Below, piece by piece: positions 1 through 11,135 of a stretch of 11,135 nt of DNA. Both the position numbers and the translations under genes were made by a program. Source of the stretch: a virus (Duplodnaviria; Heunggongvirae; Uroviricota; Caudoviricetes); the IMG/VR virus record IMGVR_UViG_2675903606_000019, positions 1-11,135 of that record. One strand, 5' to 3'. The first letter of the stretch is position 1, and each line of letters begins with the position of its first letter. The notes under the pieces are model-generated. The model ran no database searches, was not told the DNA's origin, and worked only from the letters and a program-made list of their open reading frames with translations.

Positions 1-1218
1 ATGAACAAACTGAGCGATACCTTGCTAAGGAAACTTCATGGTAAGCCAGCGGAGAAAAACACGTTTTATAGTGATGGCGGAAACCTGAGCGTGAAATATT
101 TAACATCAGGGAAATTGACCTGGTATTTCACATACAGGGCCGGAACGGGAAGGGAGACACGACCCGAACGCATTAAGCTGGGAAGTTATCCTGATCTGAG
201 CCTGAAAGCAGCCAGGGAAAAAGCCGCACAGTGTCGCACATGGCTGGCTGAGGGGAAAAATCCACGTCATGAGATGAATTACACCGTACAGGAAGCGTTA
301 AAGCCCGTAACGGTTGGCGATGCGCTCACCTACTGGCTTGAGTATTACGTAAAGGAAAACCGCGTGGATTATATCGCCCTGAAAAGGCGACTTAATAATC
401 ACGTAATACAGCAGATTGGTGCTATGCCGCTGGATAAATGCGAGCTACGGCACTGGCTGGCCTGTTTTGACCAGGTGGCAAAGCGAACGCCTGTTACTGC
501 CGGATTCGTGCTACAGGCGTGCAAACAGGCGCTTAAGTTCTGCCGTAGGCGGCGCTATGCAATCAGCAACGTTCTGGACGATCTGAACGTGGCGGACGTT
601 GGGAAAAAACCGGATATAAGCGAACGTGTCTTAAGTAACAAAGAACTTGGCGAATTATTGCAGGCACTGGACAAAAAAATATTTTCCCCTTACTACGTCG
701 CGTTAATCCGCCTCCTGATTGTCTTCGGAGCCAGGACGGTAGAACTGAGGCTATCGGAGATCGGGGAGTGGGATTTTACGGAAATGCTATGGACCGTTCC
801 GAAGGAGCACAGCAAAACGAAGGTCGCAATATTCCGGCCCATACCGGAAGCGATCCTGCCGTTCGTCACGCAGCTGGTGGAGCAGAACAGGCACACGGGC
901 TTATTGCTGGGGGAAGCGAAACAGGAGGCCAGCGTATCGCAGTATGGAAGATTAGCGCACAGGAGGCTTAATCATCCTCACTGGTCACTGCATGACATCC
1001 GGCGCACCTTTACAACCATGCTGAACGATTTAGGCGTTGATCCGCATGTCGTGGAGCAGCTTACAGGTCATCAGATGCCAGGAATGCAGCGAGTTTATAA
1101 TCATTCCCGTTATCTGGATGCTAAACGCAATGCGCTGGATATGTGGACGGAGCGGTTAGGGATACTGGCGGGAACACATGAAAACGTAACCACGCTACCA
1201 GTAGCCAGAAGAAAATAA
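1..1218 (+). CDS. int: P4-family tyrosine integrase (site-specific recombinase)
   Basis: 405-aa ORF from the track. N-terminal arm-binding-type segment (GKLTWYFTYR, GSYPDLSLKAAREKA) and C-terminal tyrosine-recombinase signature (HDIRRT ... GHQMPGMQRVYNHSRY). Overall pattern matches P4/CP4-57 IntA-type integrases from memory. Confidence 0.9.
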   Translation: MNKLSDTLLRKLHGKPAEKNTFYSDGGNLSVKYLTSGKLTWYFTYRAGTGRETRPERIKLGSYPDLSLKAAREKAAQCRTWLAEGKNPRHEMNYTVQEALKPVTVGDALTYWLEYYVKENRVDYIALKRRLNNHVIQQIGAMPLDKCELRHWLACFDQVAKRTPVTAGFVLQACKQALKFCRRRRYAISNVLDDLNVADVGKKPDISERVLSNKELGELLQALDKKIFSPYYVALIRLLIVFGARTVELRLSEIGEWDFTEMLWTVPKEHSKTKVAIFRPIPEAILPFVTQLVEQNRHTGLLLGEAKQEASVSQYGRLAHRRLNHPHWSLHDIRRTFTTMLNDLGVDPHVVEQLTGHQMPGMQRVYNHSRYLDAKRNALDMWTERLGILAGTHENVTTLPVARRK

Positions 1219-1236
1219 TTTTTTTCGTGTTTTTTC

Positions 1237-1252
1237 AGTATGCGCATACTGG
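1237..1252. repeat. Perfect 16-bp palindrome CAGTATGCGCATACTG just 3' of int
   Basis: Read directly from the sequence. A T-run precedes it on the plus strand and no U-run follows, so it is more likely a protein-binding dyad than a terminator. Confidence 0.6.
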
Positions 1253-1263
1253 ATATGCGAACA

Positions 1264-1320
1264 GATACAACATGCAACAATGAGCAACAATGCGGAACAA
1301 CTACGAACAAGAGGCGAAAA
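1264..1320. repeat. Helically phased (10-bp period) AACAA/ACAA repeats, 5-6 copies
   Basis: Consecutive 10-nt blocks each end in ACAA: gatACAA / catgcAACAA / tgagcAACAA / tgcggAACAA / ctacgAACAA / gaggcgAAAA. Strict 10-bp phasing suggests same-face binding sites or a bent-DNA element in the int-alpA spacer. Confidence 0.5.
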
Positions 1321-1404
1321 AGTGTACGGATTTATAAGTGGCTGATTTTTAATGTGTTACTGGTTTTTTATACACTAGCGAATCACTCTTTAAATAGCGA
1401 GAAA

Positions 1405-1433
1405 AAAGGCATGAAACAATATTTTATGCCTTT
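1405..1433. terminator. Hairpin AAAGGCAT-N13-ATGCCTTT flanked by A-run and T-run (possible bidirectional terminator)
   Basis: 8-bp inverted repeat seen in the sequence. On the minus strand the stem is followed by UUUUUUCUC, on the plus strand by UUUGUAUU. The loop is large (13 nt), so the call is weak. Confidence 0.3.
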
Positions 1434-1592
1434 GTATTAACATGAATTTAAATGATTTTATCCTGATTATTCCTGTTTCTGTAAACCATACGACCTCAAC
1501 ATTTGCCAACTCTGAATCATCCTGACACAATCAGACACATCCCAACGCAATAGAACACGAAATAACTCTTTAAGAAACGAAAGGGGGCAATA

Positions 1593-1781
1593 GTGTTAAG
1601 CACTGATCGGTTTATACGTGAAAAAGAATGCGAAAAGCTAACAGGCCTTAGCCGCTCATGCCGCTACCGCCTGGAAAAGGCCGGACAATTCCCATCACGT
1701 CGTAAACTTGGCGGTCGTTCCGTTGGCTGGTCTTTATCCGAGGTTCTGGCCTGGAAGGATAGCTGCAAGGCAGTTCATTAA
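1593..1781 (+). CDS. alpA: AlpA-family prophage transcriptional regulator (small HTH protein)
   Basis: 62-aa ORF with GTG start at 1593 and RBS AAGGGGG about 6 nt upstream. Pattern EKLTGLSRSCRYRLEKAGQFPSRRKLGGRSVGWSLSEVLAW matches the AlpA signature (G.SR...Y.....G.FP....LG.RSVGW...E...W). Confidence 0.85.
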   Translation: MLSTDRFIREKECEKLTGLSRSCRYRLEKAGQFPSRRKLGGRSVGWSLSEVLAWKDSCKAVH

Positions 1782-1927
1782 TCACGCTGGCGGCACACAG
1801 CCGCCACACATCAATCATCTGAACACAGAGCTATAACCATGAAGATTGAATATACGCCAGAACGTGGGCGGGGATTCGTTCGCCCTGGTGAGACTGGAAA
1901 ACCACAAAATTGGGGTTTTTCAGGCAT

Positions 1928-1955
1928 AAAAAAAGCGGCCCCGAAATGGAGCCGC
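1928..1955 (-). terminator. Rho-independent terminator for the leftward small-gene operon
   Basis: GC stem GCGGC/GCCGC (1935-1939 / 1951-1955) with possible inner pairs. On the minus strand it is followed by a 7-U run (complement of A-run 1928-1934). It lies about 100 nt downstream of the minus-strand gene ending at 2051. Confidence 0.5.
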
Positions 1956-2050
1956 CTTTCTGAACAGATAACCCGCTGCGCCGTTTGTGTGTGTGATCCC
2001 AAACATAAGCACGGGGATGATAGCCGCTATCAGGCTGGTGGGCAATGCAA

Positions 2051-2239
2051 TCAGTCTGGTTCAGTTCGTTGCCATACCTGCAATGAGCGCTTTTCCCTGT
2101 ACTCTTTAAGGAATTGCTCAAGGGCAAAAGCACATGGCGCGAATCTTTCTGATTCATGTTCTATCTTTCTGCGCCGTCTTTTCCGTGCCGGTGATAATGT
2201 TTTGGTCAATTCTTTATCGGTCATTGTGTTGTCCTGCAT
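2051..2239 (-). CDS. Small basic hypothetical protein (62 aa; alternative start at 2224 gives 57 aa)
   Basis: Track ORF MQDNTMTDKELTKTLSPARKRRRRKIEHESERF... The second ATG (MTDKEL) has an AGGA RBS 7 nt upstream. Arg/Lys-rich segment suggests nucleic-acid binding. It sits second in a leftward two-gene unit ending at the terminator near 1928-1955. Confidence 0.5.
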   Translation of the reverse strand: MQDNTMTDKELTKTLSPARKRRRRKIEHESERFAPCAFALEQFLKEYREKRSLQVWQRTEPD

Positions 2240-2281
2240 AGCAATGCGCCGTAATACCTTACACCACGGCGCTGATGGTGA

Positions 2282-2461
2282 TTACTCTGGTTCTTTGGCC
2301 TTGCGCCGCTGGCGATATTCAACTTCTCGTTTTAATGCTGCAGTAACAAATTGCCCCGTACTTTCGCCAGGCATTTTTACCGCCTCAACATTGTTCATAA
2401 CTTCATGCGGAACCCTTGCCGCAACGGTTTGTGATTTTGCGTTTACTGCTTTTGTCGCCAT
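2282..2461 (-). CDS. Small hypothetical protein (59 aa, below the ORF-track cutoff), candidate switch regulator
   Basis: Hand-translated from the minus strand: MATKAVNAKSQTVAARVPHEVMNNVEAVKMPGESTGQFVTAALKREVEYRQRRKAKEPE, stop TAA. RBS GAGGGG lies 8-13 nt upstream of the ATG (complement of 2459-2461). It is the first gene transcribed leftward from the operator region. Confidence 0.5.
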   Translation of the reverse strand: MATKAVNAKSQTVAARVPHEVMNNVEAVKMPGESTGQFVTAALKREVEYRQRRKAKEPE

Positions 2462-2511
2462 GTGGTGTACCCCTCATAAAAAACAAATGCAGTATGCAGG
2501 AAAAAAAATAA

Positions 2512-2563
2512 GTGTTCAACACTTGACGTGTTTAACACCTGGGTTTAAATTGGTGTTCAACAC
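2512..2563. promoter_or_regulatory. Three near-palindromic 11-bp operator-like sites GTGTT(C/T)AACAC overlapping divergent promoter elements
   Basis: Sites at 2512-2522, 2528-2538 and 2553-2563. Rightward -35 TTGACG (2523-2528) and -10 TAAATT (2546-2551, 17-bp spacer) lie between and within the sites. On the minus strand a TTGAAC -35 lies inside site 1. The region sits between divergently oriented small genes. Confidence 0.5.
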
Positions 2564-2660
2564 CTTGTTGGCGCAAGGTGCAGAAACGACGAAACCCGGC
2601 AGTGCGCTAACACTAACCGGGCTTCTAACCACCAACGATAGCGAAAGTATCGAGGTAGCT

Positions 2661-2864
2661 ATGAGAAATAATACCACACACCCGCAAGGGCGGGATTCGC
2701 ACAACCTGAATAAATACATCTGGCGTTTTATCGCCCTGAGCACGGCACAACCGCGCGTGATTACCATTGAGGCCACCAGCGAACAGGAAGCACGCCAGCA
2801 ATCTCCGGCTGGCTGCGTGATGGTATTCGCCGCCCGTATTCGTCAAGGGGTGTGCCATGACTGA
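2661..2864 (+). CDS. Small hypothetical protein (67 aa), first gene of the rightward early operon
   Basis: ATG at 2661 preceded by GAGGT RBS. In frame with the long track ORF 1839..2864 but only this 3' part is plausible. Its stop TGA (2862-2864) overlaps the next start ATG (2857-2859), consistent with translational coupling. Confidence 0.55.
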   Translation: MRNNTTHPQGRDSHNLNKYIWRFIALSTAQPRVITIEATSEQEARQQSPAGCVMVFAARIRQGVCHD

Positions 2865-3177
2865 TATGTCAAATTACCAGTACCTGATTAATCCGCATTT
2901 TAACTGTGAGCATGATATTGCTAAAAAGGTTTATTCCGCTGCGGATGGGGCTACTGACAATATATCAATGGCTGTTTCGTCAATTGGTAGCCTGATGTGG
3001 TATGCGTCAGAAAATAAGGAATATGACGAAAAGGCCATGCGCATTGATATGGGTAATATCGGTTTGTTACTGGCAATGCTTGGACAGTTTAATATTTCGT
3101 TACGGTGCACCATTGAAAATGCCACAGATGCATTAAATGCCATAAAGAAAGCGAATACTGATTCAAATCGGGGATAA
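2857..3177 (+). CDS. Hypothetical protein (106 aa), AT-rich cargo-like gene
   Basis: Track ORF MTDMSNYQYLINPHFNCEHDIAKK... Start overlaps the upstream stop (ATGACTGA). Visibly lower GC than neighbouring genes (estimated by eye). No recognisable family signature. Confidence 0.65.
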   Translation: MTDMSNYQYLINPHFNCEHDIAKKVYSAADGATDNISMAVSSIGSLMWYASENKEYDEKAMRIDMGNIGLLLAMLGQFNISLRCTIENATDALNAIKKANTDSNRG

Positions 3178-3183
3178 ATAATC

Positions 3184-3483
3184 ATGAGAACATATTTATC
3201 TGGCTTGACTGCCAGCGGTTATGCACACCCAAAAATTATCCCCGGCGCTATTTATCTGGATAAGAACGGTAACAGAGTAACGGTAAAAGAACTGATGTTT
3301 GACCGTGTTTATTTTATCCGTGATGGATATTCATTTCTTAGTTCGCTGAACGTGGAGATCTTTATTTGCAGATTCCGGCGGGAAATCCCGACTTCCAGAA
3401 ATAACCATGTGTCACGTGTGGATGTGGATAAAAAACTACAGGAACTGAAAAACATGATTGCCGCGTGGAGAGAGCAGAAATGA
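3184..3483 (+). CDS. Hypothetical protein (99 aa), AT-rich cargo-like gene
   Basis: Track ORF MRTYLSGLTASGYAHPKIIPGAIYLDKNGNRVTVKELMFDRVYFIRDGYSF... RBS GGGGA upstream. Its stop TGA (3481-3483) overlaps the ATG (3480-3482) of the primase gene (ATGA coupling). Confidence 0.65.
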   Translation: MRTYLSGLTASGYAHPKIIPGAIYLDKNGNRVTVKELMFDRVYFIRDGYSFLSSLNVEIFICRFRREIPTSRNNHVSRVDVDKKLQELKNMIAAWREQK

Positions 3484-5603
3484 AAAAAGCGCCAAATTTA
3501 AAACACCAGCCGCGTGACAAAATGACGGAAGTCATCATTTTTGCGGGTAGTGATGCGTGGGCACATGCGAAGCAGTGGCAGGAACAGGACGGGCGACTGG
3601 CTGGCGACAGCGTGCCTCCTGTCTGGCTTGGAGAGCAACAACTTGCCGAACTGGATAAGCTGCAAATTGTGCCGGAAGGCCGAAAATCAGTACGCATATT
3701 CAGGGCCGGACATCTTGAGCCAGTAATGATCAAGGCGATTGGTCAGAAGCTGGCGGCGGCAGGCGTACAGGATGCAAATTTTTACCCTGATGGAATGCAC
3801 GGTCAGGAGGTGGAGAACTGGCGCGAATATCTAGCCCGTGAGCGGCAGAATCTTTCTGATGGTCTGGTTATTGAGTTTCCGGTAAAGAAAAAAGATACCG
3901 GAAGCCATAGCGATGACGAATTAAAGCCACGCGTTGAAAGTCGCGCCGATGGTGTTTTCTGGGTAACGCCCAAAGTGGATAAGCAGTCAGGCGAAATTAT
4001 CCGGCCTGAGACGTGGTTATGTTCTCCGCTTGAACTACTGGGAACGGGGACGATCGGTAAAGAGCATTACCGCGTGATGCGCTGGAAAAAAACCGCAAAC
4101 CATGAAGTCATCACAATGGCGATCCCGTGTGGTGGTATCGGCGACCGTGACGGCTGGCGGTTACTTAAAGATCACGGGCTGAACGTGACAACCAACGGCA
4201 AATACAGGGCAATCCTGGCGGACTGGATGCAGTTAAGCGGAAGCCATGAGGAATGGCAGTTAAGCACAACAACGGGCTGGCATTTTGGCGCGTACATCAT
4301 GCCGGACGGTTCGATCATTGGTGAATCTGAAAAACCGATCCTGTTTACCGGAAAAAGCGCCGCGATTAACGGTTATTCCGTGGCGGGCACGGCGGATGGC
4401 TGGCGCGACAGCGTGGCGCGGCTGGCTGGCGGTAATGCCTCAATGATGCTGGGTGTGGCAACGTCACTGGCAGCGCCTTTAATTGGCCTTGTGGGTGCTG
4501 ACGGCTTCGGGGTGCATCTTTTCGAACAGTCATCGGCAGGTAAGACCACCACGCAGAACATCGCATCAAGTTTATGGGGAGAGCCGGACGCGCAGCGGCT
4601 GACCTGGTACGGCACGGCGTTAGGTATTGCCAATGAGGCCGAGGCCCATAATGACGGGCTTTTACCACTGGATGAGATAGGCCAGGCCGGAAATGCGCGG
4701 GAAGTGTCAACGTCTGCTTATACGCTGTTTAACGGTTCAGGGAAATTGCAGGGGGCGAAGGATGGCGGCAACAGGGAGATCAAACACTGGCGAACGGTGG
4801 CAATCAGCACCGGAGAAATGGACGTTGAGACATTCCTCAAAAGTGAGGGGATAAAAGTTAAGGCGGGGCAGCTTGTCCGACTGCTTAACGTTCCGATGGA
4901 AAAAGCCACGAAATTTCACGAATACAGCAACGGTAAGGAACATGCTGACGCGTTAAAGGATGCCTGGACAGCAAATCACGGGGCGGCGGGTCGTGAGTGG
5001 GTTAAATGGCTGGCAGGCCACCAGCAGGAGGCAAAGGATACGGTAAGGGAATGCCGCGAACGGTGGCGCAACCTGATACCGGAGAGCTACGGCGAGCAGG
5101 TCCACCGCGTGGGTGAACGTTTCGCCATACTGGAGGCCGCGCTTGTGCTTTCCGGTCATGTAACTGGCTGGGTCGTGCAGGAATGCCGCGACGCGATACA
5201 GCATAACTTTAATGCCTGGGTGAAGGAGTTCGGCACGGGTAACAGGGAATTTAAACAGATGGTTGAACAGGCTGAGGCGTTTTTGTCGTCGTTTGGGTTT
5301 AGCCGCTACCTTCCGTACCCCAATACAGATGAGCGTGATTTACCGATTAAAGAGCTTGCCGGATACAGAAAAGGGAGCATTCGCAACGAAGATGACGAGA
5401 TGCGCTATTACACGTTCCCGCACGTGTTTGAGAGTGAGATAGCGAAGGGATTTAATCCGGCGCATTTTGCGCGTGCCCTGGATGCTGCCGGAATGCTGGA
5501 GAAGGGAAGCGATCGCCGATACAAAAAAAAGGCGCTGGGCAAGATTGGGGGTAAGCAGCATGTTTTTTACGTGCTGATGTTCCAGCCTGATGATGAAGAT
5601 TAA
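3480..5603 (+). CDS. Replication primase/helicase-type protein (P4 alpha / PICI Pri-Rep-like; NTPase with Walker A motif)
   Basis: About 707 aa (track ORF 3465..5603; the ATG at 3480 with ATGA overlap is preferred, ATG at 3465 or 3522 possible). Contains Walker A-like SSAGKTTT and is followed directly by an iteron array. Size and position match the satellite/prophage primase-helicase class. The exact domain family needs a profile search. Confidence 0.8.
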   Translation: MKKAPNLKHQPRDKMTEVIIFAGSDAWAHAKQWQEQDGRLAGDSVPPVWLGEQQLAELDKLQIVPEGRKSVRIFRAGHLEPVMIKAIGQKLAAAGVQDANFYPDGMHGQEVENWREYLARERQNLSDGLVIEFPVKKKDTGSHSDDELKPRVESRADGVFWVTPKVDKQSGEIIRPETWLCSPLELLGTGTIGKEHYRVMRWKKTANHEVITMAIPCGGIGDRDGWRLLKDHGLNVTTNGKYRAILADWMQLSGSHEEWQLSTTTGWHFGAYIMPDGSIIGESEKPILFTGKSAAINGYSVAGTADGWRDSVARLAGGNASMMLGVATSLAAPLIGLVGADGFGVHLFEQSSAGKTTTQNIASSLWGEPDAQRLTWYGTALGIANEAEAHNDGLLPLDEIGQAGNAREVSTSAYTLFNGSGKLQGAKDGGNREIKHWRTVAISTGEMDVETFLKSEGIKVKAGQLVRLLNVPMEKATKFHEYSNGKEHADALKDAWTANHGAAGREWVKWLAGHQQEAKDTVRECRERWRNLIPESYGEQVHRVGERFAILEAALVLSGHVTGWVVQECRDAIQHNFNAWVKEFGTGNREFKQMVEQAEAFLSSFGFSRYLPYPNTDERDLPIKELAGYRKGSIRNEDDEMRYYTFPHVFESEIAKGFNPAHFARALDAAGMLEKGSDRRYKKKALGKIGGKQHVFYVLMFQPDDED

Positions 5604-5625
5604 TCCCCTGTGTGAGGAAAAAAAT

Positions 5626-5941
5626 TGCGGGTTATGCGGGTTATCCTGTGTATAAGTGTATTAAGTGCATGAATATAAAGGAAACCAATAACCCGCACGT
5701 AACCCGCAAAAGGGCATTTATAACCCGCAAAAGCACGATTATAACCCGCAGGCGAATAACTGAAGTAACACCGGACAGTCATGCGTAACCCGCAGAAAAA
5801 ACCCAGTTTGCGGGTTATTTTGAGCGTTTTGCGGGTTACGTGGTGAGCAAATAATAAACAGGGTGTTTTGCAAAATACTGATATAAAAGGATAAAAAATG
5901 GTTAGCACGCTAAGATAACCCAATAACCCGCATAACCCGCA
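5626..5941. repeat. Iteron array: about 11-12 copies of TAACCCGCA in both orientations (probable replication origin)
   Basis: Reverse copies (TGCGGGTTA) at 5626-5634, 5635-5643, 5809-5817, 5830-5838. Forward copies at 5689-5697, 5700-5708, 5721-5729, 5742-5750, 5786-5794, 5924-5932, 5933-5941, plus a degenerate copy near 5914-5922. AT-rich stretches at 5855-5960. Lies immediately downstream of the primase/helicase gene. Confidence 0.75.
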
Positions 5942-5973
5942 CATGTTTCTATATATATAAATTGAGGTGGCAA

Positions 5974-6225
5974 ATGACCAGAACACGCAGAGACAGAACA
6001 GAGCCAAAATATAAAGCGTTAGACATGACTGAGCACACCTTAAAGGTGGCAATCAGAACGATAGACCGCCACACGCGGGAAGGATACGCGAAGGAACATC
6101 CCGACCTGATAAGCGCATTCATGACCACGGCGGCGGCAAACTTTGCCACGCTGACAGAACGGGAGATTGCCGAAGCGGAACAGGTAACAACCATCAACGT
6201 TAAAACCGGAGAGGTGGAATCATGA
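5974..6225 (+). CDS. Hypothetical protein (83 aa from ATG 5974; the track starts at TTG 5962)
   Basis: RBS GAGG at 5964-5967 precedes ATG 5974. Its stop overlaps the ssb start (ATGA at 6222-6225). No family recognised. Confidence 0.6.
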   Translation: MTRTRRDRTEPKYKALDMTEHTLKVAIRTIDRHTREGYAKEHPDLISAFMTTAAANFATLTEREIAEAEQVTTINVKTGEVES

Positions 6226-6632
6226 CAGCACAGATAGCGGCTTACGGTCGGCTGGTGGACGACCCGCAGGTAAAACAGACCAGCAAGGGCACACCGATGA
6301 CGCTGGCGCGTATGGCGGTATCACTGCCATGCAGTCAGGCACAGGACGGACAGGCGACGTTATGGCTATCGGTCATCGCATTTGGTAAGCAGGCCGACTT
6401 CCTGGCTAAACATCAAAAAGGCGACGTTGCCAGCGTATCCGGCACGATGCAGGTAAGCCAGTGGACCGGACAGAACGGGGAGACGCGTCAGGGTTATCAG
6501 GTTATTGCAGACAGCGTAATCAGTGCCCGTGCGGCACGTCCTGGCGGGAACAGACGCAAAACCACAGGCGCACAGGGTAATCAGCCACCAGCGGGAGGCG
6601 ATGACCCTTACGGTGATGATATTCCGTTCTGA
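6222..6632 (+). CDS. ssb: Single-stranded DNA-binding protein (SSB), short form with canonical acidic C-terminal tip
   Basis: 136 aa. OB-fold-like core (GRLVDDPQV..., W...FGKQADFL..KG..V...G......W....G..R) and C-terminus ending DDPYGDDIPF, matching the conserved SSB DDDIPF tail that recruits partner proteins. Confidence 0.85.
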   Translation: MTAQIAAYGRLVDDPQVKQTSKGTPMTLARMAVSLPCSQAQDGQATLWLSVIAFGKQADFLAKHQKGDVASVSGTMQVSQWTGQNGETRQGYQVIADSVISARAARPGGNRRKTTGAQGNQPPAGGDDPYGDDIPF

Positions 6633-6642
6633 GGGGGTGACG

Positions 6643-6915
6643 ATGGTACATGACCGCATAGCGGAAGAACTCGAAGCGAAAGGATTTTACCGGAGGGCGG
6701 CGGCGCGATGGGGTGAAGTCATGATGCTGGTGGAGACAGACAAGGAACGGCATCACATCACGATGCGACGGCTGGAATGTTCCAGGAAGGCACAGAGGCC
6801 ACCGGAGCCGCCGGATAACTTCGGAGACCTGAGAAAGGCAGTCGATCGCACTTATGCTGAAATGGGTATAGATGGTGTAAGCGATGAAATATGGCGTAAT
6901 TACCCAGGCAGCTAA
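6643..6915 (+). CDS. PerC-like small transcriptional regulator (90 aa)
   Basis: ATG at 6643 with RBS GAGGGGG 5 nt upstream (the track ORF 6523..6915 is in frame but its 5' part overlaps ssb). Motif EELEAKGFYRRAAARWGEVMM resembles the PerC-family signature (G-[FW]-[WY]-RRAA-x-RW) as I recall it. Confidence 0.55.
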   Translation: MVHDRIAEELEAKGFYRRAAARWGEVMMLVETDKERHHITMRRLECSRKAQRPPEPPDNFGDLRKAVDRTYAEMGIDGVSDEIWRNYPGS

Positions 6916-6921
6916 TCAACA

Positions 6922-6943
6922 GCCGGAGTAATCCGGCTTTTTT
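6922..6943 (+). terminator. Rho-independent terminator after the replication module
   Basis: Stem GCCGGA/TCCGGC with GTAA loop followed by TTTTTT (6938-6943). Confidence 0.7.
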
Positions 6944-6956
6944 GTACCCAAAAAAA

Positions 6957-6992
6957 GCCCGATAAGTACAGGAGGCATCTTATCGGGCTTTT
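6957..6992. terminator. Second hairpin terminator, potentially bidirectional
   Basis: 10-bp stem GCCCGATAAG/CTTATCGGGC with 12-nt loop. A-run upstream (6950-6956), TTTT downstream, and a further T8 run at 7003-7010. Confidence 0.5.
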
Positions 6993-7071
6993 GCATATGA
7001 GGTTTTTTTTGGTGCACTGACACACATGATCGGGATCATCATTTCATAATTTGCAACACAACTCAACATCA

Positions 7072-7099
7072 TTGCATAAAATGCAATCATGATTATAAT
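7072..7099 (+). promoter_or_regulatory. Strong sigma70-like promoter for the capsid operon (-35 TTGCAT, 16-bp spacer, -10 TATAAT)
   Basis: TTGCAT at 7072-7077 and a perfect TATAAT at 7094-7099. Located about 55 nt upstream of the first late-operon start codon. Confidence 0.5.
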
Positions 7100-7103
7100 C
7101 AGA

Positions 7104-7119
7104 TCTGGATGAACATCCA
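7104..7119. promoter_or_regulatory. Perfect inverted repeat CTGGATG-AA-CATCCAG at the predicted transcription start
   Basis: Seen in the sequence. Followed within 6 nt by a T6 run (GATTTTTTAAG). Could be an operator or a 5' RNA hairpin/attenuator. A second dyad, ATGATC-GG-GATCAT, lies upstream at about 7026-7039. Confidence 0.45.
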
Positions 7120-7155
7120 GTTATGATTTTTTAAGTCAAAGAGGAATTTCTTACT

Positions 7156-7362
7156 ATGGCTGAAGAGAAAAAAGGCGGTGTTTCGGTGTACATAAGCCCC
7201 GACATCGTGAAGGCGCTCAAGGAACGCCACCAGCAGAACGTAAAAGCAGGCATTGCGGCAGGACTTGATCCGCTGGCGATGGTTGAGCCGTCAACAGGCT
7301 GGCAGGTACGCGCCTATTTACGCGCGGCGCTGGGTATGAATCAGGTTCACGGGGGTGAATAA
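7156..7362 (+). CDS. Hypothetical protein (68 aa), first gene of the capsid operon
   Basis: RBS GAGGA 10 nt upstream. Its stop TAA overlaps the major capsid gene start (TAATG at 7360-7364). No family recognised. Confidence 0.6.
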   Translation: MAEEKKGGVSVYISPDIVKALKERHQQNVKAGIAAGLDPLAMVEPSTGWQVRAYLRAALGMNQVHGGE

Positions 7363-8417
7363 TGACAGTAAAAGCAATAGCACTTAACACTAACCAGCTT
7401 TTTGTGTACCTGAATCGCGAGGATATTGCGGAATTTAAATTCAGTCCGCTGTTTACCGCGCTGTTTTTCCCGAACGTGGCGACATTCAACACACAGGACA
7501 TCATGTTAGATAACCTGGATATTGAAGAAGTCACTATGTCGGCGTTTTGTTCGCCTATGGTGGGTAGCCAGGTTCAGCGCGATAAAGGGTACGAAACAAG
7601 CATTATTCGCCCTGGCTACATGAAGCCAAAACACGAAATCGATCCATTAAAAACAATAATGCGCATGGCTGGAGAAGATCCAGCACAGCTTAACGACCCT
7701 ACCTACCGCCGTATGCGCCTGATTACTGGCAACATGCGCCGCCAGATAAACGCCATTAAAGCGCGCGTGGAATGGCTGGCGGTAAATGCGGTAACGACCG
7801 GAAAAAACATCATTGAGGGCGAAGGCATAGAGCGCTATGAAATCGACTGGAAGATACCGGAAAAAAACATCATAGAGCAGGCCGACGGTAAAAAATGGTC
7901 AGAGCAGGACAAAGACATACACGACCCAATCTATGACATTGAGCTATACGCAGATCAGGCAGGTTGCCCCGCCAACGTCATGATTATGGGCGTTGATGTA
8001 TGGCGCATGTTACGCAGCTTTAAAAAATTCCGTGAACTGTACGATCTCTCCCGTGGTTCAGAATCCGCCGCAGAGCTGGCATGTAAAAACCTGGGCGAAG
8101 TGGTGAGCTTTAAAGGCTATCTTGGTGATCTGGCCCTTATCGTCTATTCCGGCAAATACACTGACAGCGACGGCACAGAAAAATATTTCCTTGAGCCTGA
8201 TTTGCTGGTCCTGGGCAACACCAACAATAAAGGGCTGGTGGCCTATGGTGCGATTATGGAACAGGAAGCGGTAAGAACGGGCGCAACGCAAAACATGTTT
8301 TACCCGAAAAACTGGATTGAAGACGGCGATCCGGCGATTGAGTACGTGCAGACACACAGCGCACCGCAGCCTGTTCCGGCAGATATTCGCAAATTTGTTA
8401 CCGTCAAAATTGGTTAA
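7362..8417 (+). CDS. Major capsid protein, lambda gpE family
   Basis: 351 aa. Multiple blocks match phage lambda gpE as recalled: FKFSPLFTALFF (lambda FKFDPLFLRLFF), PGYMKPKHEIDP (PGYVKPKHEVNP), EDPAQLNDPTYRRMRLITGNMRRQ (EDPQNLADPAYRRRRIIMQNMRDE), YPKNWIEDGDPAIEYVQTHSAP (YPKNWVTTGDPAREFTMIQSAP). Confidence 0.9.
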   Translation: MTVKAIALNTNQLFVYLNREDIAEFKFSPLFTALFFPNVATFNTQDIMLDNLDIEEVTMSAFCSPMVGSQVQRDKGYETSIIRPGYMKPKHEIDPLKTIMRMAGEDPAQLNDPTYRRMRLITGNMRRQINAIKARVEWLAVNAVTTGKNIIEGEGIERYEIDWKIPEKNIIEQADGKKWSEQDKDIHDPIYDIELYADQAGCPANVMIMGVDVWRMLRSFKKFRELYDLSRGSESAAELACKNLGEVVSFKGYLGDLALIVYSGKYTDSDGTEKYFLEPDLLVLGNTNNKGLVAYGAIMEQEAVRTGATQNMFYPKNWIEDGDPAIEYVQTHSAPQPVPADIRKFVTVKIG

Positions 8418-8428
8418 CGGTGGATTCT

Positions 8429-8764
8429 ATGAACACTCCATACATTGAGTTATTTGCAGGCAGTCAGCAGGTATCAACGACGCTGGTACATTTTGCCGCT
8501 GATGCTGGCGTTATTCAGGAATTTACCCCGCTGATGCTGGCGGACAATGGCGAGTTTAAGCCGTGGGATGGTCAGGAATCTGGCAAGGCTGTTTATCTGA
8601 CCTCGTACCCCGTTGACACGTCGACGCAGAAATCAGCACAGTGCTATAAGACGGGGATATTCAATATCGCCGCCGTTAACTGGCCTGAGAGCGTCGACAC
8701 CGATGCGAAAAAATGCGCCGCCTTTGCGGGTTCTGGCGTATCCGTTCAGCCGCTGGCCCGATAA
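8429..8764 (+). CDS. Head decoration protein, lambda gpD family
   Basis: 111 aa from ATG 8429 (the track starts at GTG 8420); RBS GGTGGA 5 nt upstream. Matches lambda gpD blocks: TPLMLADNGEFKPWDG (lambda TPLMLDTSSRKLVAWDG), YKTGIFNIAAVNWPESVDTDAKKCAAFAGSGVSV ([35 protein letters not shown]). Confidence 0.85.
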   Translation: MNTPYIELFAGSQQVSTTLVHFAADAGVIQEFTPLMLADNGEFKPWDGQESGKAVYLTSYPVDTSTQKSAQCYKTGIFNIAAVNWPESVDTDAKKCAAFAGSGVSVQPLAR

Positions 8765-8776
8765 GCAGGGGGAACG

Positions 8777-9190
8777 ATGGCAACGAATGAAAGCATCATG
8801 GCGCTACCGCTGGCGAGTAAATTTAAAGCCGAAGCGCGGGCAATGGCTGACAGAGGGTTATCAACCTACGAGGCCGTATATCAACTCAACAAACTGGAAG
8901 AACAGGACAAGCCGCGCGCTGATGCGATTATGGCGCTTCATGAACATAACGACTATCAGCCGCTGTTACGTGCAATGGCAAACGTGCCATGTATTAGCGT
9001 CGATAATGCTCGTGAAATCCTGAACATGACCATAGAGCAGGAGCGCCCAAAGGTTGCACCAGAGCTTACCGCAGCCTTTGAAAACTTTATGGACATGCAC
9101 AGCCCGCAAGCCGTATCAGCTGGCATGGCATACGATGGCAGAAACCAGGGCGATGACGGCGACATCGATCACATACTGAAAACCATCTGA
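8777..9190 (+). CDS. Hypothetical protein (137 aa), last gene of the capsid operon
   Basis: RBS AGGGGGA 4 nt upstream of the ATG. Acidic C-terminus. No resemblance noted to lambda FI/FII/W as I recall them. Followed by a strong terminator. Confidence 0.65.
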   Translation: MATNESIMALPLASKFKAEARAMADRGLSTYEAVYQLNKLEEQDKPRADAIMALHEHNDYQPLLRAMANVPCISVDNAREILNMTIEQERPKVAPELTAAFENFMDMHSPQAVSAGMAYDGRNQGDDGDIDHILKTI

Positions 9191-9196
9191 GACAAG

Positions 9197-9220
9197 GCCG
9201 GAGAAATCCGGCTTTTTTTT
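9197..9220 (+). terminator. Strong rho-independent terminator (GNRA tetraloop hairpin plus T8)
   Basis: Stem GCCGGA/TCCGGC with GAAA loop and 8 T (9213-9220). The stem is identical to that of the terminator at 6922-6943. Confidence 0.8.
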
Positions 9221-9298
9221 ACGGGTCCTTTCCGGCATATGGACCCGTTACGGGGCGGCGACCTCGCGGTTTTTCGCTATTTATGAGCCTTTTCAGGG
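9221..9298. other. Lambda-type cos site (cosQ-like, cosN 12-nt cohesive end GGGCGGCGACCT at 9253-9264, start of cosB)
   Basis: ACGGGTCCTTTCCGG...GTTACG-GGGCGGCGACCT-CGCGGTTTTTCGCTATTTATGA closely matches the right and left termini of phage lambda as I recall them (right end ...ACGGGTCCTTTCCGGTGATCCGACAGGTTACG, left end GGGCGGCGACCTCGCGGGTTTTCGCTATTTATGA...). Sequence diverges from lambda after about 9298. Confidence 0.8.
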
Positions 9299-9358
9299 GG
9301 GTGGTGGTGGTTTTGTTGTTTGCTCTATCTTTATGAATGAAAAGGGAAAGATGCAAAC

Positions 9359-9396
9359 AATACACCAACCTGAAGCAGTAATTAAGTTGGTGTATT
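9359..9396. repeat. Perfect 11-bp inverted repeat AATACACCAAC-N16-GTTGGTGTATT abutting the terS start codon
   Basis: Read directly from the sequence. The right arm ends 2 nt before ATG 9398. Candidate cosB-type binding site or a translational-control hairpin. Confidence 0.5.
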
Positions 9397-9397
9397 A

Positions 9398-9940
9398 ATG
9401 AAATCGCACCTGATGAACAAAAAAAACATGGCGAAAAGCTGCCGTGTAAGTGCGACAGCGTTCGACAAGTGGGGAGTGACTCCCGTTGAACGTAAAGGCC
9501 GTGAGGCGTTTTACGATGTTGCCAGCGTGATAGACAATAGGGTTAACAATGCAATTAGCCAGCTTACAAACGACAAAGGCGATATTGATGATGATGAACT
9601 CTTACGAGTCAGGATCAGATTACTGACAGCACAGGCGGAGGCGCAGGAACTTAAAAACGAGCGCGATCGCGGTGACGTGATCGATACTGAGTTTTGCCTG
9701 TACGCGCTTTCAAAGCTGGCGAGTCAGATTTCATCAATCATGGACAGCCTCCCGCTTACTATGCAAAGGAGCTTCCCACAGATTACCCCCGCCATGCTGG
9801 ATAGGCTTAAAAGGGAAGTGGTTAAAGCCTGTAATGCCAGTGCCAGAGTTGCCGACAACCTCCCACAGATACTGGCTGATTACTTGAAAGAAACAACCGG
9901 AAACGTACCGGAAAAGTTGCAGCCGAATAAAGATAAGTAA
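9398..9940 (+). CDS. Terminase small subunit, lambda Nu1 family
   Basis: 180 aa. C-terminal two thirds align with lambda Nu1 as recalled: RLLTAQAEAQELKNERDRGDVIDTEFCLYALSKLASQISSIMDSLPLTMQRSFPQ (lambda RLTRAQADAQELKNARDSAEVVETAFCTFVLSRIAGEIASILDGLPLSVQRRFPE). N-terminal region is more divergent but still shows NKK...W...G.PV.R.G....YD.A.VI. Confidence 0.85.
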   Translation: MKSHLMNKKNMAKSCRVSATAFDKWGVTPVERKGREAFYDVASVIDNRVNNAISQLTNDKGDIDDDELLRVRIRLLTAQAEAQELKNERDRGDVIDTEFCLYALSKLASQISSIMDSLPLTMQRSFPQITPAMLDRLKREVVKACNASARVADNLPQILADYLKETTGNVPEKLQPNKDK

Positions 9941-9951
9941 CGTAGTACGCT

Positions 9952-10233
9952 ATGACTGAATCCGAAATACTGCGATTAATCCGCCGCGTCTCTGGAATCA
10001 GCCAGCAGGCTGACGAACAGACCACGCAGCCGGACAGCGTGACAGCCGAAAACTATGCGCGTGTTGTTGCTGAGGTGATGCGCCGTGATGGTATAGAACT
10101 TAATGGCGTGGATATGCGCAACATACGAACCAGAGTTCTTGAGTTGCTGGCCTACCGTCGCCGCGTGGAGATGTATCGGGAGAAGGAGAAAATAACGTAC
10201 CACTGGAAGAAGCCGGAGCGGTTGCGGCGGTAA
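9952..10233 (+). CDS. Hypothetical protein (93 aa) downstream of terS
   Basis: Track ORF MTESEILRLIRRVSGISQQADEQ... It occupies the position where lambda has the large terminase gene A, but is far too small to be a terminase. No family recognised. Confidence 0.55.
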   Translation: MTESEILRLIRRVSGISQQADEQTTQPDSVTAENYARVVAEVMRRDGIELNGVDMRNIRTRVLELLAYRRRVEMYREKEKITYHWKKPERLRR

Positions 10234-10526
10234 CTGGTTGATATTCCCGACGGACCAAAAATGGGTGGCTACATCCCTCGCTTCTGAGGACTGTTAACAA
10301 GCTGCCTGAAAGACAGTCACAAACTACGAAATTTTCGCAGTTTAATTAATGATCAGCTTAATCGCTAACCCGCTGATATTTTCGGAAACCTCAATTTGAG
10401 GAAGTCGGCGCGGTAACTCGCTGAACTTTAAGCAAAGCGCAAAATTGCGCTTGCTGAATAATCATTATGATTACGCAGATGATTAAGGAATGACCGAAGG
10501 CGGAAATTCGCCTGTGGTTAATGGGG

Positions 10527-10546
10527 GAGTTGCAGATCTGCAACTC
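10527..10546. repeat. Perfect 20-bp palindrome GAGTTGCAGATCTGCAACTC
   Basis: Read directly from the sequence. A perfect 20-bp palindrome is very unlikely by chance in 11 kb. Confidence 0.7.
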
Positions 10547-10552
10547 GACCAT

Positions 10553-10639
10553 GAAACTACGGAAACTACCCGTAGTTTGGGTAGTAAGAGTAACACCCAG
10601 ATTTTGGGTCTTACTCGTGATACCCAAATTTGGGGTATC
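10553..10639. repeat. Half-site array (AAACTAC x2, then GTAGTTT and a partial GGGTAGT) followed by two adjacent stable hairpins / palindromic sites
   Basis: AAACTAC at 10554-10560 and 10563-10569, GTAGTTT at 10572-10578, partial copy at 10579-10585. Hairpin GAGTAA-c-ACCCA-gattt-TGGGT-c-TTACTC (10588-10616). Hairpin GATACCC-aaatttg-GGGTATC (10619-10639). The two ACCCA...GGGT units are direct repeats of a palindromic site about 27 bp apart. Confidence 0.55.
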
Positions 10640-10902
10640 AGTGGCAACCATAACGACTTTCGTTACGGTTGATGCTTTTACCCCATTGGGGGAAAGGTAT
10701 TACGATAATCATAACACCTACCGAACAGGTAAAGCCCACCAGCCTGATTAACGTTTAACCGGAAAAAAATTCCGGTAGGTGGGGATCCCCATATCGACAT
10801 TAACGCCCCTCATGAATTGGTGCGCTTCCCCCTGGAAAGATGATCCGCCTGTATATTTCTTGTGTCTATTTGTTCCACGTTGTTTCATACAGTGCACCGA
10901 AC

Positions 10903-10924
10903 GGTGTAGTCACTGGTGTAGTCA
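10903..10924. repeat. Tandem direct repeat GGTGTAGTCA x2 (12-bp period) near the right junction; candidate integrase arm-type sites
   Basis: GGTGTAGTCA at 10903-10912 and 10915-10924, followed by TTTTGCG repeats at about 10924-10950. About 75 bp inside the proposed junction. Confidence 0.4.
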
Positions 10925-10976
10925 TTTTGCGATTTTTGGCACTTTTTGCGGTGAAAATTATTTAATTAAATCAACG

Positions 10977-11135
10977 TGTTATGTGAAATAAGTTATATAT
11001 AACAGCAATAAATAATGCGAGAATAAACGGCACGATGATCTCGGTGGCAAAACGGATACCGCAGAGAATAATGACCAGCATTCCCAACATAATGACGATT
11101 TTTAGGCCATTGAGCGTGATGATCGGCTTTGCCAT
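10977..11135 (-). pseudogene. tqsA: Truncated 5' fragment of a tqsA-like (AI-2 exporter family) membrane protein gene; likely chromosomal flank interrupted by the element
   Basis: Minus-strand ORF of 52 codons, [52 protein letters not shown], then TAA. The first 46 or so residues match the N-terminus of E. coli TqsA/YdgG as I recall it; the reading frame then diverges and stops, where the native protein continues for about 300 more residues. Confidence 0.55.

Follow-up and report, generated by a model that had tools for sequence, protein, structure and literature searches.

What is encoded by a pair of small, conspicuously AT-rich genes that lies immediately upstream of the primase gene of a phage satellite? 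The pair, here called orfA and orfB, occupies positions 2857-3483 of a DNA stretch of 11,135 nucleotides (IMG/VR record IMGVR_UViG_2675903606_000019, positions 1 to 11,135; hereafter the window). By gene content, attachment (att) site and replicase identity, the window is a satellite of the Gram-negative phage-inducible chromosomal island (PICI) type, similar to OI-51/EcCIEDL933. A preliminary description of this DNA had presented the pair as a module matching no recognisable family and as the likeliest place in the early region for a novel function, such as helper-interference or anti-phage cargo. Our analysis leads to a different answer: the stretch is an allelic cassette of a known but poorly understood core module of Escherichia coli PICIs, consisting of a divergent RgdR/DUF4222 protein and an uncharacterised partner. 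The genes and domains on which the argument depends are as follows (coordinates refer to the window; aa, amino acid residues).

2661-2864, + strand: Icd-like gene (icd), 67 aa, first gene of the operon (NCBIfam NF033153, 69.8 bits; phrog_6196)
2857-3177, + strand: orfA, 106 aa, ATG to TAA (phrog_15327/phrog_6805)
3184-3483, + strand: orfB, 99 aa, ATG to TGA (Pfam PF13973 (DUF4222), phrog_285)
3480-3860, + strand: N-terminal domain of the replicase, about 125 aa, without a Pfam match (alignment, Pfam scans, coverage profile)
3861-5603, + strand: DUF927 primase/helicase body of the replicase (Pfam and PHROG scans; the whole gene spans 3480-5603)

The two coupled open reading frames (ORFs) of 106 and 99 aa are present as originally described, and reading the sequence confirmed their translational coupling both upstream and downstream. 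The stop codon of icd and the start of orfA overlap in ATGACTGA, a gap of 6 nt with GGGGA 5' of the orfB start separates orfA from orfB, and the orfB stop overlaps the primase ATG at 3480 in an ATGA, with GGAGAG 5' of it; each of these three junctions has a Shine-Dalgarno-like motif. Because a scan detected no promoter- or terminator-like site on the + strand inside 2857-3483 and a promoter-like site is located upstream of icd, the sequence of icd, orfA, orfB and the replicase gene looks like that of one operon. Both ORFs are real genes under purifying selection, since dN/dS is 0.28 for orfA (53 DNA alleles) and 0.38 for orfB (49 alleles) across 71 cassette-bearing islands, and homologues of orfA are found at 28-64% identity in other genera.

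The AT-richness, previously estimated by eye, is also real. The GC content is 39.3% for orfA, 42.0% for orfB and 40.4% for the whole stretch, versus about 50-54% in the neighbours: 49.8% and 51.7% in the left and right flanks of equal length, 55.4% in icd and 53.8% in the primase gene. The window as a whole has 49.1% GC. Only 0.65% of all 627-nt segments are equally AT-rich, and these belong either to 2857-3483 or to the int-alpA intergenic region. The bias extends to synonymous sites, as seen from the GC content at third codon positions (39-44% in the pair vs 55-60% in neighbouring genes) and from codon usage: A or T is the final base of 119 of the 203 codons, compared with 89.1 +/- 6.8 expected from amino acid composition and the codon usage of the island itself (z = 4.4; 119 was reached in 0 of 5000 simulations).

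The claim that neither gene matches a known family could not be upheld. While orfA matches phrog_15327 over its full length, orfB, a basic protein of 99 aa with an isoelectric point (pI) of 9.86, matches both phrog_285 (E 6e-22) and the Pfam family PF13973 (DUF4222) at 61.4 bits (cut-off 27), residues 16-67 being aligned to positions 1-52 of the 53-position profile. The experimentally studied member of this family is RgdR (ECs1581), a regulator originating from O-island 51 (PMC3378721), which contains the DUF4222 domain (review PMC10877973) and binds DNA non-specifically (PMC3378721). The DUF4222 protein of strain EDL933 (L169:4159-4458) can be identified from its sequence as RgdR because it has all six ECs1581 diagnostic residues named in the RgdR paper (D10, R20, Q27, K35, H45 and R61; PMC3378721). 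Alignment of orfB with EDL933 RgdR is ungapped over all 99 residues, with 31% identity; identity to the RGD-type allele of a sister island is 34%. The two proteins share a SGLTASG-type motif at the N-terminus, a core rich in beta structure (PGxIYxD...RVxFxR[DE]GY) and an amphipathic helix at the C-terminus. On these matches we assign orfB to the DUF4222/RgdR family as a divergent member. The RGD tripeptide, from which RgdR takes its name, is absent from orfB, which has P20-G21-A22 where RgdR has R-G-D. The effects of RgdR residue 20 on activity depend on context (PMC3378721), and the missing tripeptide weakens the statement that orfB is RgdR but not the statement that it is a DUF4222 member. 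K35 is kept in orfB, and A10 and K27 are as in ECED1_1787, the inactive commensal variant (PMC3378721).

Conservation of the DUF4222 gene next to the replicase gene was assessed in twelve E. coli islands, namely the window, its closest relatives, EDL933 and six loci evenly spaced down the ranking of replicase N-domain matches. A DUF4222 gene is found directly 5' of the replicase gene in 12/12 (11 intact, 1 truncated), and its position is constant whether the replicase body is of the DUF927, the D5_N/DUF5906/Pox_D5 or the RepA-type AAA_25 kind; thus, orfB is a core gene rather than cargo. All 11 junctions that were read (the window, five E. coli genome islands, one from Klebsiella and four from IMG/VR) have the ATGA overlap between the DUF4222 stop and the replicase start. 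The truncated DUF4222 remnant (about 39 aa; L173:1495-1647, E. coli 2014C-3011) still overlaps the replicase start, the junction having been kept despite decay. Among complete E. coli genomes, the replicase N-domain was detected in 1747/5426 and an RGD-type DUF4222 region in 1517/5426, and every E. coli PICI analysed in the literature was reported to encode RgdR (PMC6092414). The preliminary description had named conserved core genes with a known replication role as the finding that would speak against its idea; half of this is what we see, in that orfB is core, and the known replication role is the half that did not materialise.

The expected variability of the slot across related islands likewise turned out to apply to one gene of the pair: the place of orfA varies, whereas DUF4222 (orfB) is always present. 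Sister islands carry differing sets of one to three small ORFs in the icd-DUF4222 interval, and in the 11 sampled E. coli genome islands the slot is filled by orfA in 3/11 and by other ORFs in 8/11. The gene directly 5' of DUF4222 is orfA in all four orfA islands (the window, L012, L013 and L170) and phrog_2196-like in 8/8 sampled genome islands lacking orfA. The phrog_2196-like partner is an acidic protein of about 75 aa, and both partner types have a pI of 4.7-5.1, in contrast to a pI of 9.5-10.6 for the 99-100-aa DUF4222 proteins preceding these replicases and of 8-9 for two short DUF4222 variants (60-72 aa) from other genera. Homology between orfA and the phrog_2196-like proteins was considered and rejected (hhalign probability 0.2%).

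The orfA gene and its DUF4222 allele travel together. Both orfA and the PGA-type DUF4222 allele are present in 471/474 E. coli genomes carrying either, and they co-occur on every untruncated IMG/VR contig. The preliminary description is supported on this point, in so far as the pair is a unit of foreign composition. The same linkage and AT-richness are seen in a more divergent pair, with identities of 64% for orfA and 86% for orfB. Low GC is specific to the orfA-orfB cassette, versus about 50% in RGD-type DUF4222 genes and 46-52% in orfA homologues of other genera. The block shared by 72 unique cassette-bearing IMG/VR islands corresponds to window positions ~2600-3800, from icd to the N-domain of the replicase. 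Positions 3500-3800 are common to 71-72 of 72-73 islands, the replicase body beyond to only 13-14, and the icd-like gene to 57/72. The cassette is found on at least three replicase types, and the replicases downstream of it vary in length (about 605, about 707 and others). The simplest reading of these data is a cassette of foreign origin that is exchanged by recombination through conserved flanks, icd on one side and the replicase N-domain on the other. The N-domain, which appears to be the right-hand recombination flank, heads three unrelated bodies (DUF927, D5_N/DUF5906/Pox_D5 and RepA AAA_25) in the same form of about 125 aa. Its conserved pattern, seen in the window and in L013, L014, L002, L004, L090 and L091, is MKxAPNxK...IIFAGSDAWAHAKQW...PPVWLG...GR..VR...AG.

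The second protein, orfA, is acidic (pI 4.9) and matches phrog_15327 with E 1.8e-69 over residues 1-106/106 and phrog_6805 with E 5e-4; its homologues from other genera match both. These homologues, at the identities given above, come from Klebsiella, Kluyvera, Trabulsiella, Erwinia and Serratia, and a profile search of genome contigs with orfA (narrow peptide pattern) identified 3 Serratia loci; together they make up a small family of Enterobacterales. An AlphaFold2 model of orfA, of fair confidence (pLDDT, predicted local distance difference test, 79.8), is a hairpin of two long helices (residues 19-51 and 58-105), and the loop between them is the most conserved stretch of the protein, with the motif GSLM[WF]xA[ST][ED]NxxY. 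The remote-homology and structure check that had been proposed gave this hairpin for orfA and no significant fold or PDB sequence match. Foldseek searches of the model against PDB and BFVD yielded no match at E <= 0.001 (generic helical hairpins only, E about 0.2-3), and searches with both proteins and the profiles A1 and A2 against PDB chains returned nothing below E 0.1. A WXG100-type fold was rejected for orfA: the best matches, EsxB and TraM-type hairpins, had E about 1, and there is no WxG motif.

Two further observations concern the orfA family. Residues 41-84 of orfA resemble the repeat unit (YDEKHPSLATTLGNLGLILQDLGQY) of the 1222-aa eukaryote-type protein P0058, which has 13 KLC-type tetratricopeptide (TPR) repeats, the resembling part being window 3018-3110 (residues ~54-84). 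Pfam TPR models do not match orfA, and homology to TPR proteins was rejected; the resemblance is probably at the level of the hairpin. Separately, many orfA homologues of ~105 aa (P0073-P0165; Klebsiella, Raoultella and Erwinia) appear in NCBI/UniRef under the name "ubiquinol-cytochrome C reductase", very likely a propagated misannotation because their context is a satellite early operon and no domain supports the name.

Wherever the genomic context was examined (Escherichia, Klebsiella, Kluyvera, Serratia and Erwinia), members of the orfA family are early-operon genes located upstream of a satellite replicase. Gene orders outside E. coli are the following.

Klebsiella: orfA-like, phrog_2196-like, DUF4222, D5-type primase
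Kluyvera: Icd-like, orfA-like, phrog_6610, primase
Serratia: orfA-like, phrog_6610, primase
Erwinia: Icd-like, 58-aa ORF, orfA-like, three small ORFs, Toprim/DUF927 primase

This constant operon position across five genera fits a life-cycle gene better than cargo. We favor, with moderate confidence, an explanation in which the pair is an early-operon accessory, made up of a DNA-binding DUF4222 protein and its cognate acidic partner, and represents one variant of a core life-cycle module. Helper-triggered activation would switch on the early operon, and orfB would be translated together with the replicase through the start overlap. The DUF4222 protein would then act on DNA and assist early regulation or replication initiation at the adjacent iteron origin, and the acidic hairpin orfA may be its cognate binding partner or modulator. 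RgdR-like effects on host transcription (LEE, the enterocyte effacement locus, and motility) would be side effects. The orfA gene and its DUF4222 allele are inherited as one AT-rich unit, which has entered islands with different replicase bodies by recombination, apparently at the conserved flanks.

Several points weigh against this explanation. The replicases of the window and OI-51 are 97% identical and their DUF4222 proteins 31%, and therefore there is no tight co-evolution with the replicase body. In Kluyvera satellites with the same replicase N-domain, phrog_6610 stands in the place of DUF4222, and orfA homologues occur without DUF4222 in Serratia, Erwinia and Kluyvera. Because the identity contrast, the phrog_6610 replacement and the occurrence of orfA without DUF4222 speak against a strict replication role, our confidence in the explanation stays at a middling level. 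In the small number of IMG/VR loci lacking orfA that were examined, the pattern of acidic partners holds less well, and an interaction between orfA and orfB is purely something we infer. The AlphaFold2 model of orfB agrees in secondary structure with the architecture shared with RgdR, at low confidence (pLDDT 53) because its alignment contained near-identical homologues only. The published phenotypes of RgdR are of host gene regulation only (type III secretion (T3S), motility and Congo red binding; PMC3378721). Finally, foreign composition together with a variable slot is also what cargo genes look like.

The RgdR phenotypes lead to an alternative in which orfB, possibly tuned by orfA, is an accessory regulator of host genes that reprograms chromosomal transcription (LEE/T3S in strains that have it, motility and surface properties) to the advantage of host or island and is dispensable for the satellite life cycle. 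RgdR of OI-51 activates LEE1/T3S and represses motility (PMC3378721) and affects sheep colonisation (PMC3378721, PMC10877973), the window carries a PerC-family gene, another family of LEE activators (PMC6092414), and orfB conserves K35, a residue that RgdR requires for full activity. We nevertheless consider this alternative unlikely: orfB has P20-G-A instead of R20-G-D and shares A10 and K27 with the inactive variant (PMC3378721), the family is present in roughly 1500-1750/5426 E. coli genomes, mostly not of LEE-positive pathotypes, and an overlap with the replicase start that is fixed in every island speaks for a function in the cycle of the island itself. The idea of a small novel anti-phage or helper-interference cargo in a variable satellite slot, with which the preliminary description had started, gained no positive evidence and now seems improbable. 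It can draw on the differences of the icd-DUF4222 slot between sister islands, on the foreign composition of the cassette, on the lack of any tblastn match of orfA and orfB in 50,697 phage records, and on the fact that PICIs carry defence genes, some of which were missed by PADLOC and DefenseFinder (PMC11364771). However, no PADLOC family was matched at E <= 0.1 by orfA, orfB or their neighbours, no enzymatic, sensor or effector domain is recognisable in the helical hairpin of orfA or the DUF4222 of orfB, orfB is core rather than variable, and the orfA family keeps its early-operon place across five genera. The location also disagrees: PICI defence hotspots have been described at the 5' end, at the 3' end and downstream of pri (PMC11364771), and the pair sits outside them, upstream of pri in the early operon. 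The PICI and capsid-forming PICI (cf-PICI) literature (PMC6739421, bioRxiv cf-PICI preprint) contained no functional data on genes of this slot.

Two other alternatives relate the pair to the helper. The tip of the orfA hairpin could bind a helper or host protein, for example a repressor, in the manner of epsilon of satellite P4, the cassettes setting which helpers can be exploited. The position equals that of P4 epsilon/orf151/orf106, between the immunity (Icd-like) region and the primase, the inter-helix loop is the most conserved part of orfA, and the cassettes are exchanged between islands as alleles; there is, on the other hand, no sequence similarity to epsilon, orf151 or orf106. In the Gram-negative PICIs described so far it is, to our knowledge, the helper that induces the island and not the reverse, and we regard an epsilon-like role as very doubtful. 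In a broader version, the acidic hairpin and the basic DUF4222 protein might form a two-protein specificity module deciding which helpers are responded to, exploited or blocked, although we give this little credence. It is similarly improbable that this module exists in at least two non-homologous versions (orfA/PGA-type DUF4222 and phrog_2196/RGD-type DUF4222) swapped as cassettes, or that it represents a functional counterpart of P4 epsilon or a minimal interference system, unrecognised so far, upstream of pri.

The remainder of the window agrees with its assignment to PICIs, of which the hallmarks int, alpA, pri-rep followed by iterons, packaging genes and an att site are all found (the size criterion being ~11-15 kb). 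In the closest E. coli relatives the island insertion interrupts tqsA, and over its full length the replicase shares 97% identity with that of EDL933 O-island 51 / CP-933C (E. coli O157:H7). Other features of the window are listed below.

1-1218: integrase gene, int
1593-1781: alpA
On the - strand, divergent from icd: ylcI-like gene
2506-2563, + strand: putative early-operon control region between the ylcI-like gene (-) and icd (+) (promoter scan, repeat D7, sequence)
5619-5948: iteron-type putative origin with TAACCCGCA copies (repeat families D1-D5 and I1-I18)
Downstream of the origin: SSB gene
6643-6915: PerC-family regulator gene (Pfam E 4e-44)
7362-10233: late region between the major capsid gene and the right end, with ORFs of 351 (major capsid), 114 (decoration), 137, 180 (TerS) and 93 aa

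The region 5619-5948, directly 3' of the replicase gene, contains dense direct and inverted TAACCCGCA repeats flanking an AT-rich core. Origins of Gram-negative PICIs have been described with this organisation of iterons (PMC6092414), and the region is presumably the island's replication origin. At the other end of the operon, the probable early control region (2506-2563) contains a sigma-70-like promoter by consensus match (TTGACG-17-TAAATT, 2523-2551), which lies among three GTGTT(C/T)AACAC palindromes that look like operator sites for an early-operon regulator. Rfam searches of the window gave nothing at the gathering score, and a P4/P1-type C4/CI immunity RNA was looked for upstream of icd and not detected. 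A sub-threshold SymR-like match (33.3 bits, gathering score 61; E 7e-4) is located at 2588-2660 on the - strand, antisense to the leader that immediately precedes the icd start. The alpA-icd interval is also covered by a 341-aa ORF (1839-2864, +), antisense to the ylcI-like gene and a 62-aa gene; it is doubtful as a gene, and probably is not one, because related genomes annotate only a truncated pseudogene there. With orfB and the PerC-family regulator, the island encodes members of two LEE-regulator-associated families. Product names in the late region are borrowed from sister-island annotation. No portal- or protease-like ORF was noticed there by eye (these ORFs were not scanned with Pfam or PHROGs), whereas the described capsid-forming islands have portal and protease genes (bioRxiv cf-PICI preprint).

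About one in three complete E. coli genomes has a DUF4222/RgdR gene adjoining a satellite replicase gene, and DUF4222 has so far been studied solely as a virulence regulator in O157:H7. Its fixed position at the replicase start and its allelic pairing with alternative acidic partners point to an unstudied role in the satellite cycle, and orfB should be annotated as a DUF4222/RgdR-family protein. Should fine-tuning of replication or early transcription be all that the pair does, the finding would interest specialists only.

How does the cassette compare with known systems? The PICI defence systems, such as Tai, belong to the same satellite class and likewise occupy regions that differ between related islands, but they have demonstrated anti-phage phenotypes and are situated at the 5' and 3' ends or downstream of pri, whereas orfA-orfB lies upstream of pri and includes one core member. 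RgdR of O-island 51 is like orfB in its Pfam family, 99-aa length, basic pI, architecture and overlap with the replicase start; the two differ in sequence (31% identity), at positions 20-22 (RGD vs PGA), in GC content (about 50% vs 42%) and in the preceding gene, which is phrog_2196-like for RgdR and orfA for orfB. The phrog_2196-like proteins share with orfA its position, small size class and acidic pI and have no profile-profile similarity to it, and in Klebsiella genes of both kinds occur together, followed by DUF4222. BLASTP and hmmsearch comparisons of orfA and orfB with the P4 proteins gave nothing significant, the P4 proteins mapping to other Pfam families or to none. P4 also differs in its primase N-terminus and lacks DUF4222, its orf106 product is DUF5375, and its epsilon acts on the helper. 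The left operon of P4, orf88(alpA)-cI-epsilon-orf151-orf106-alpha, is nonetheless colinear with the early operon of the island, with an AlpA-like regulator, an immunity/Icd-like region, two or three small ORFs and the primase in the same order, and this colinearity favors an early-operon accessory role for the orfA-orfB pair.

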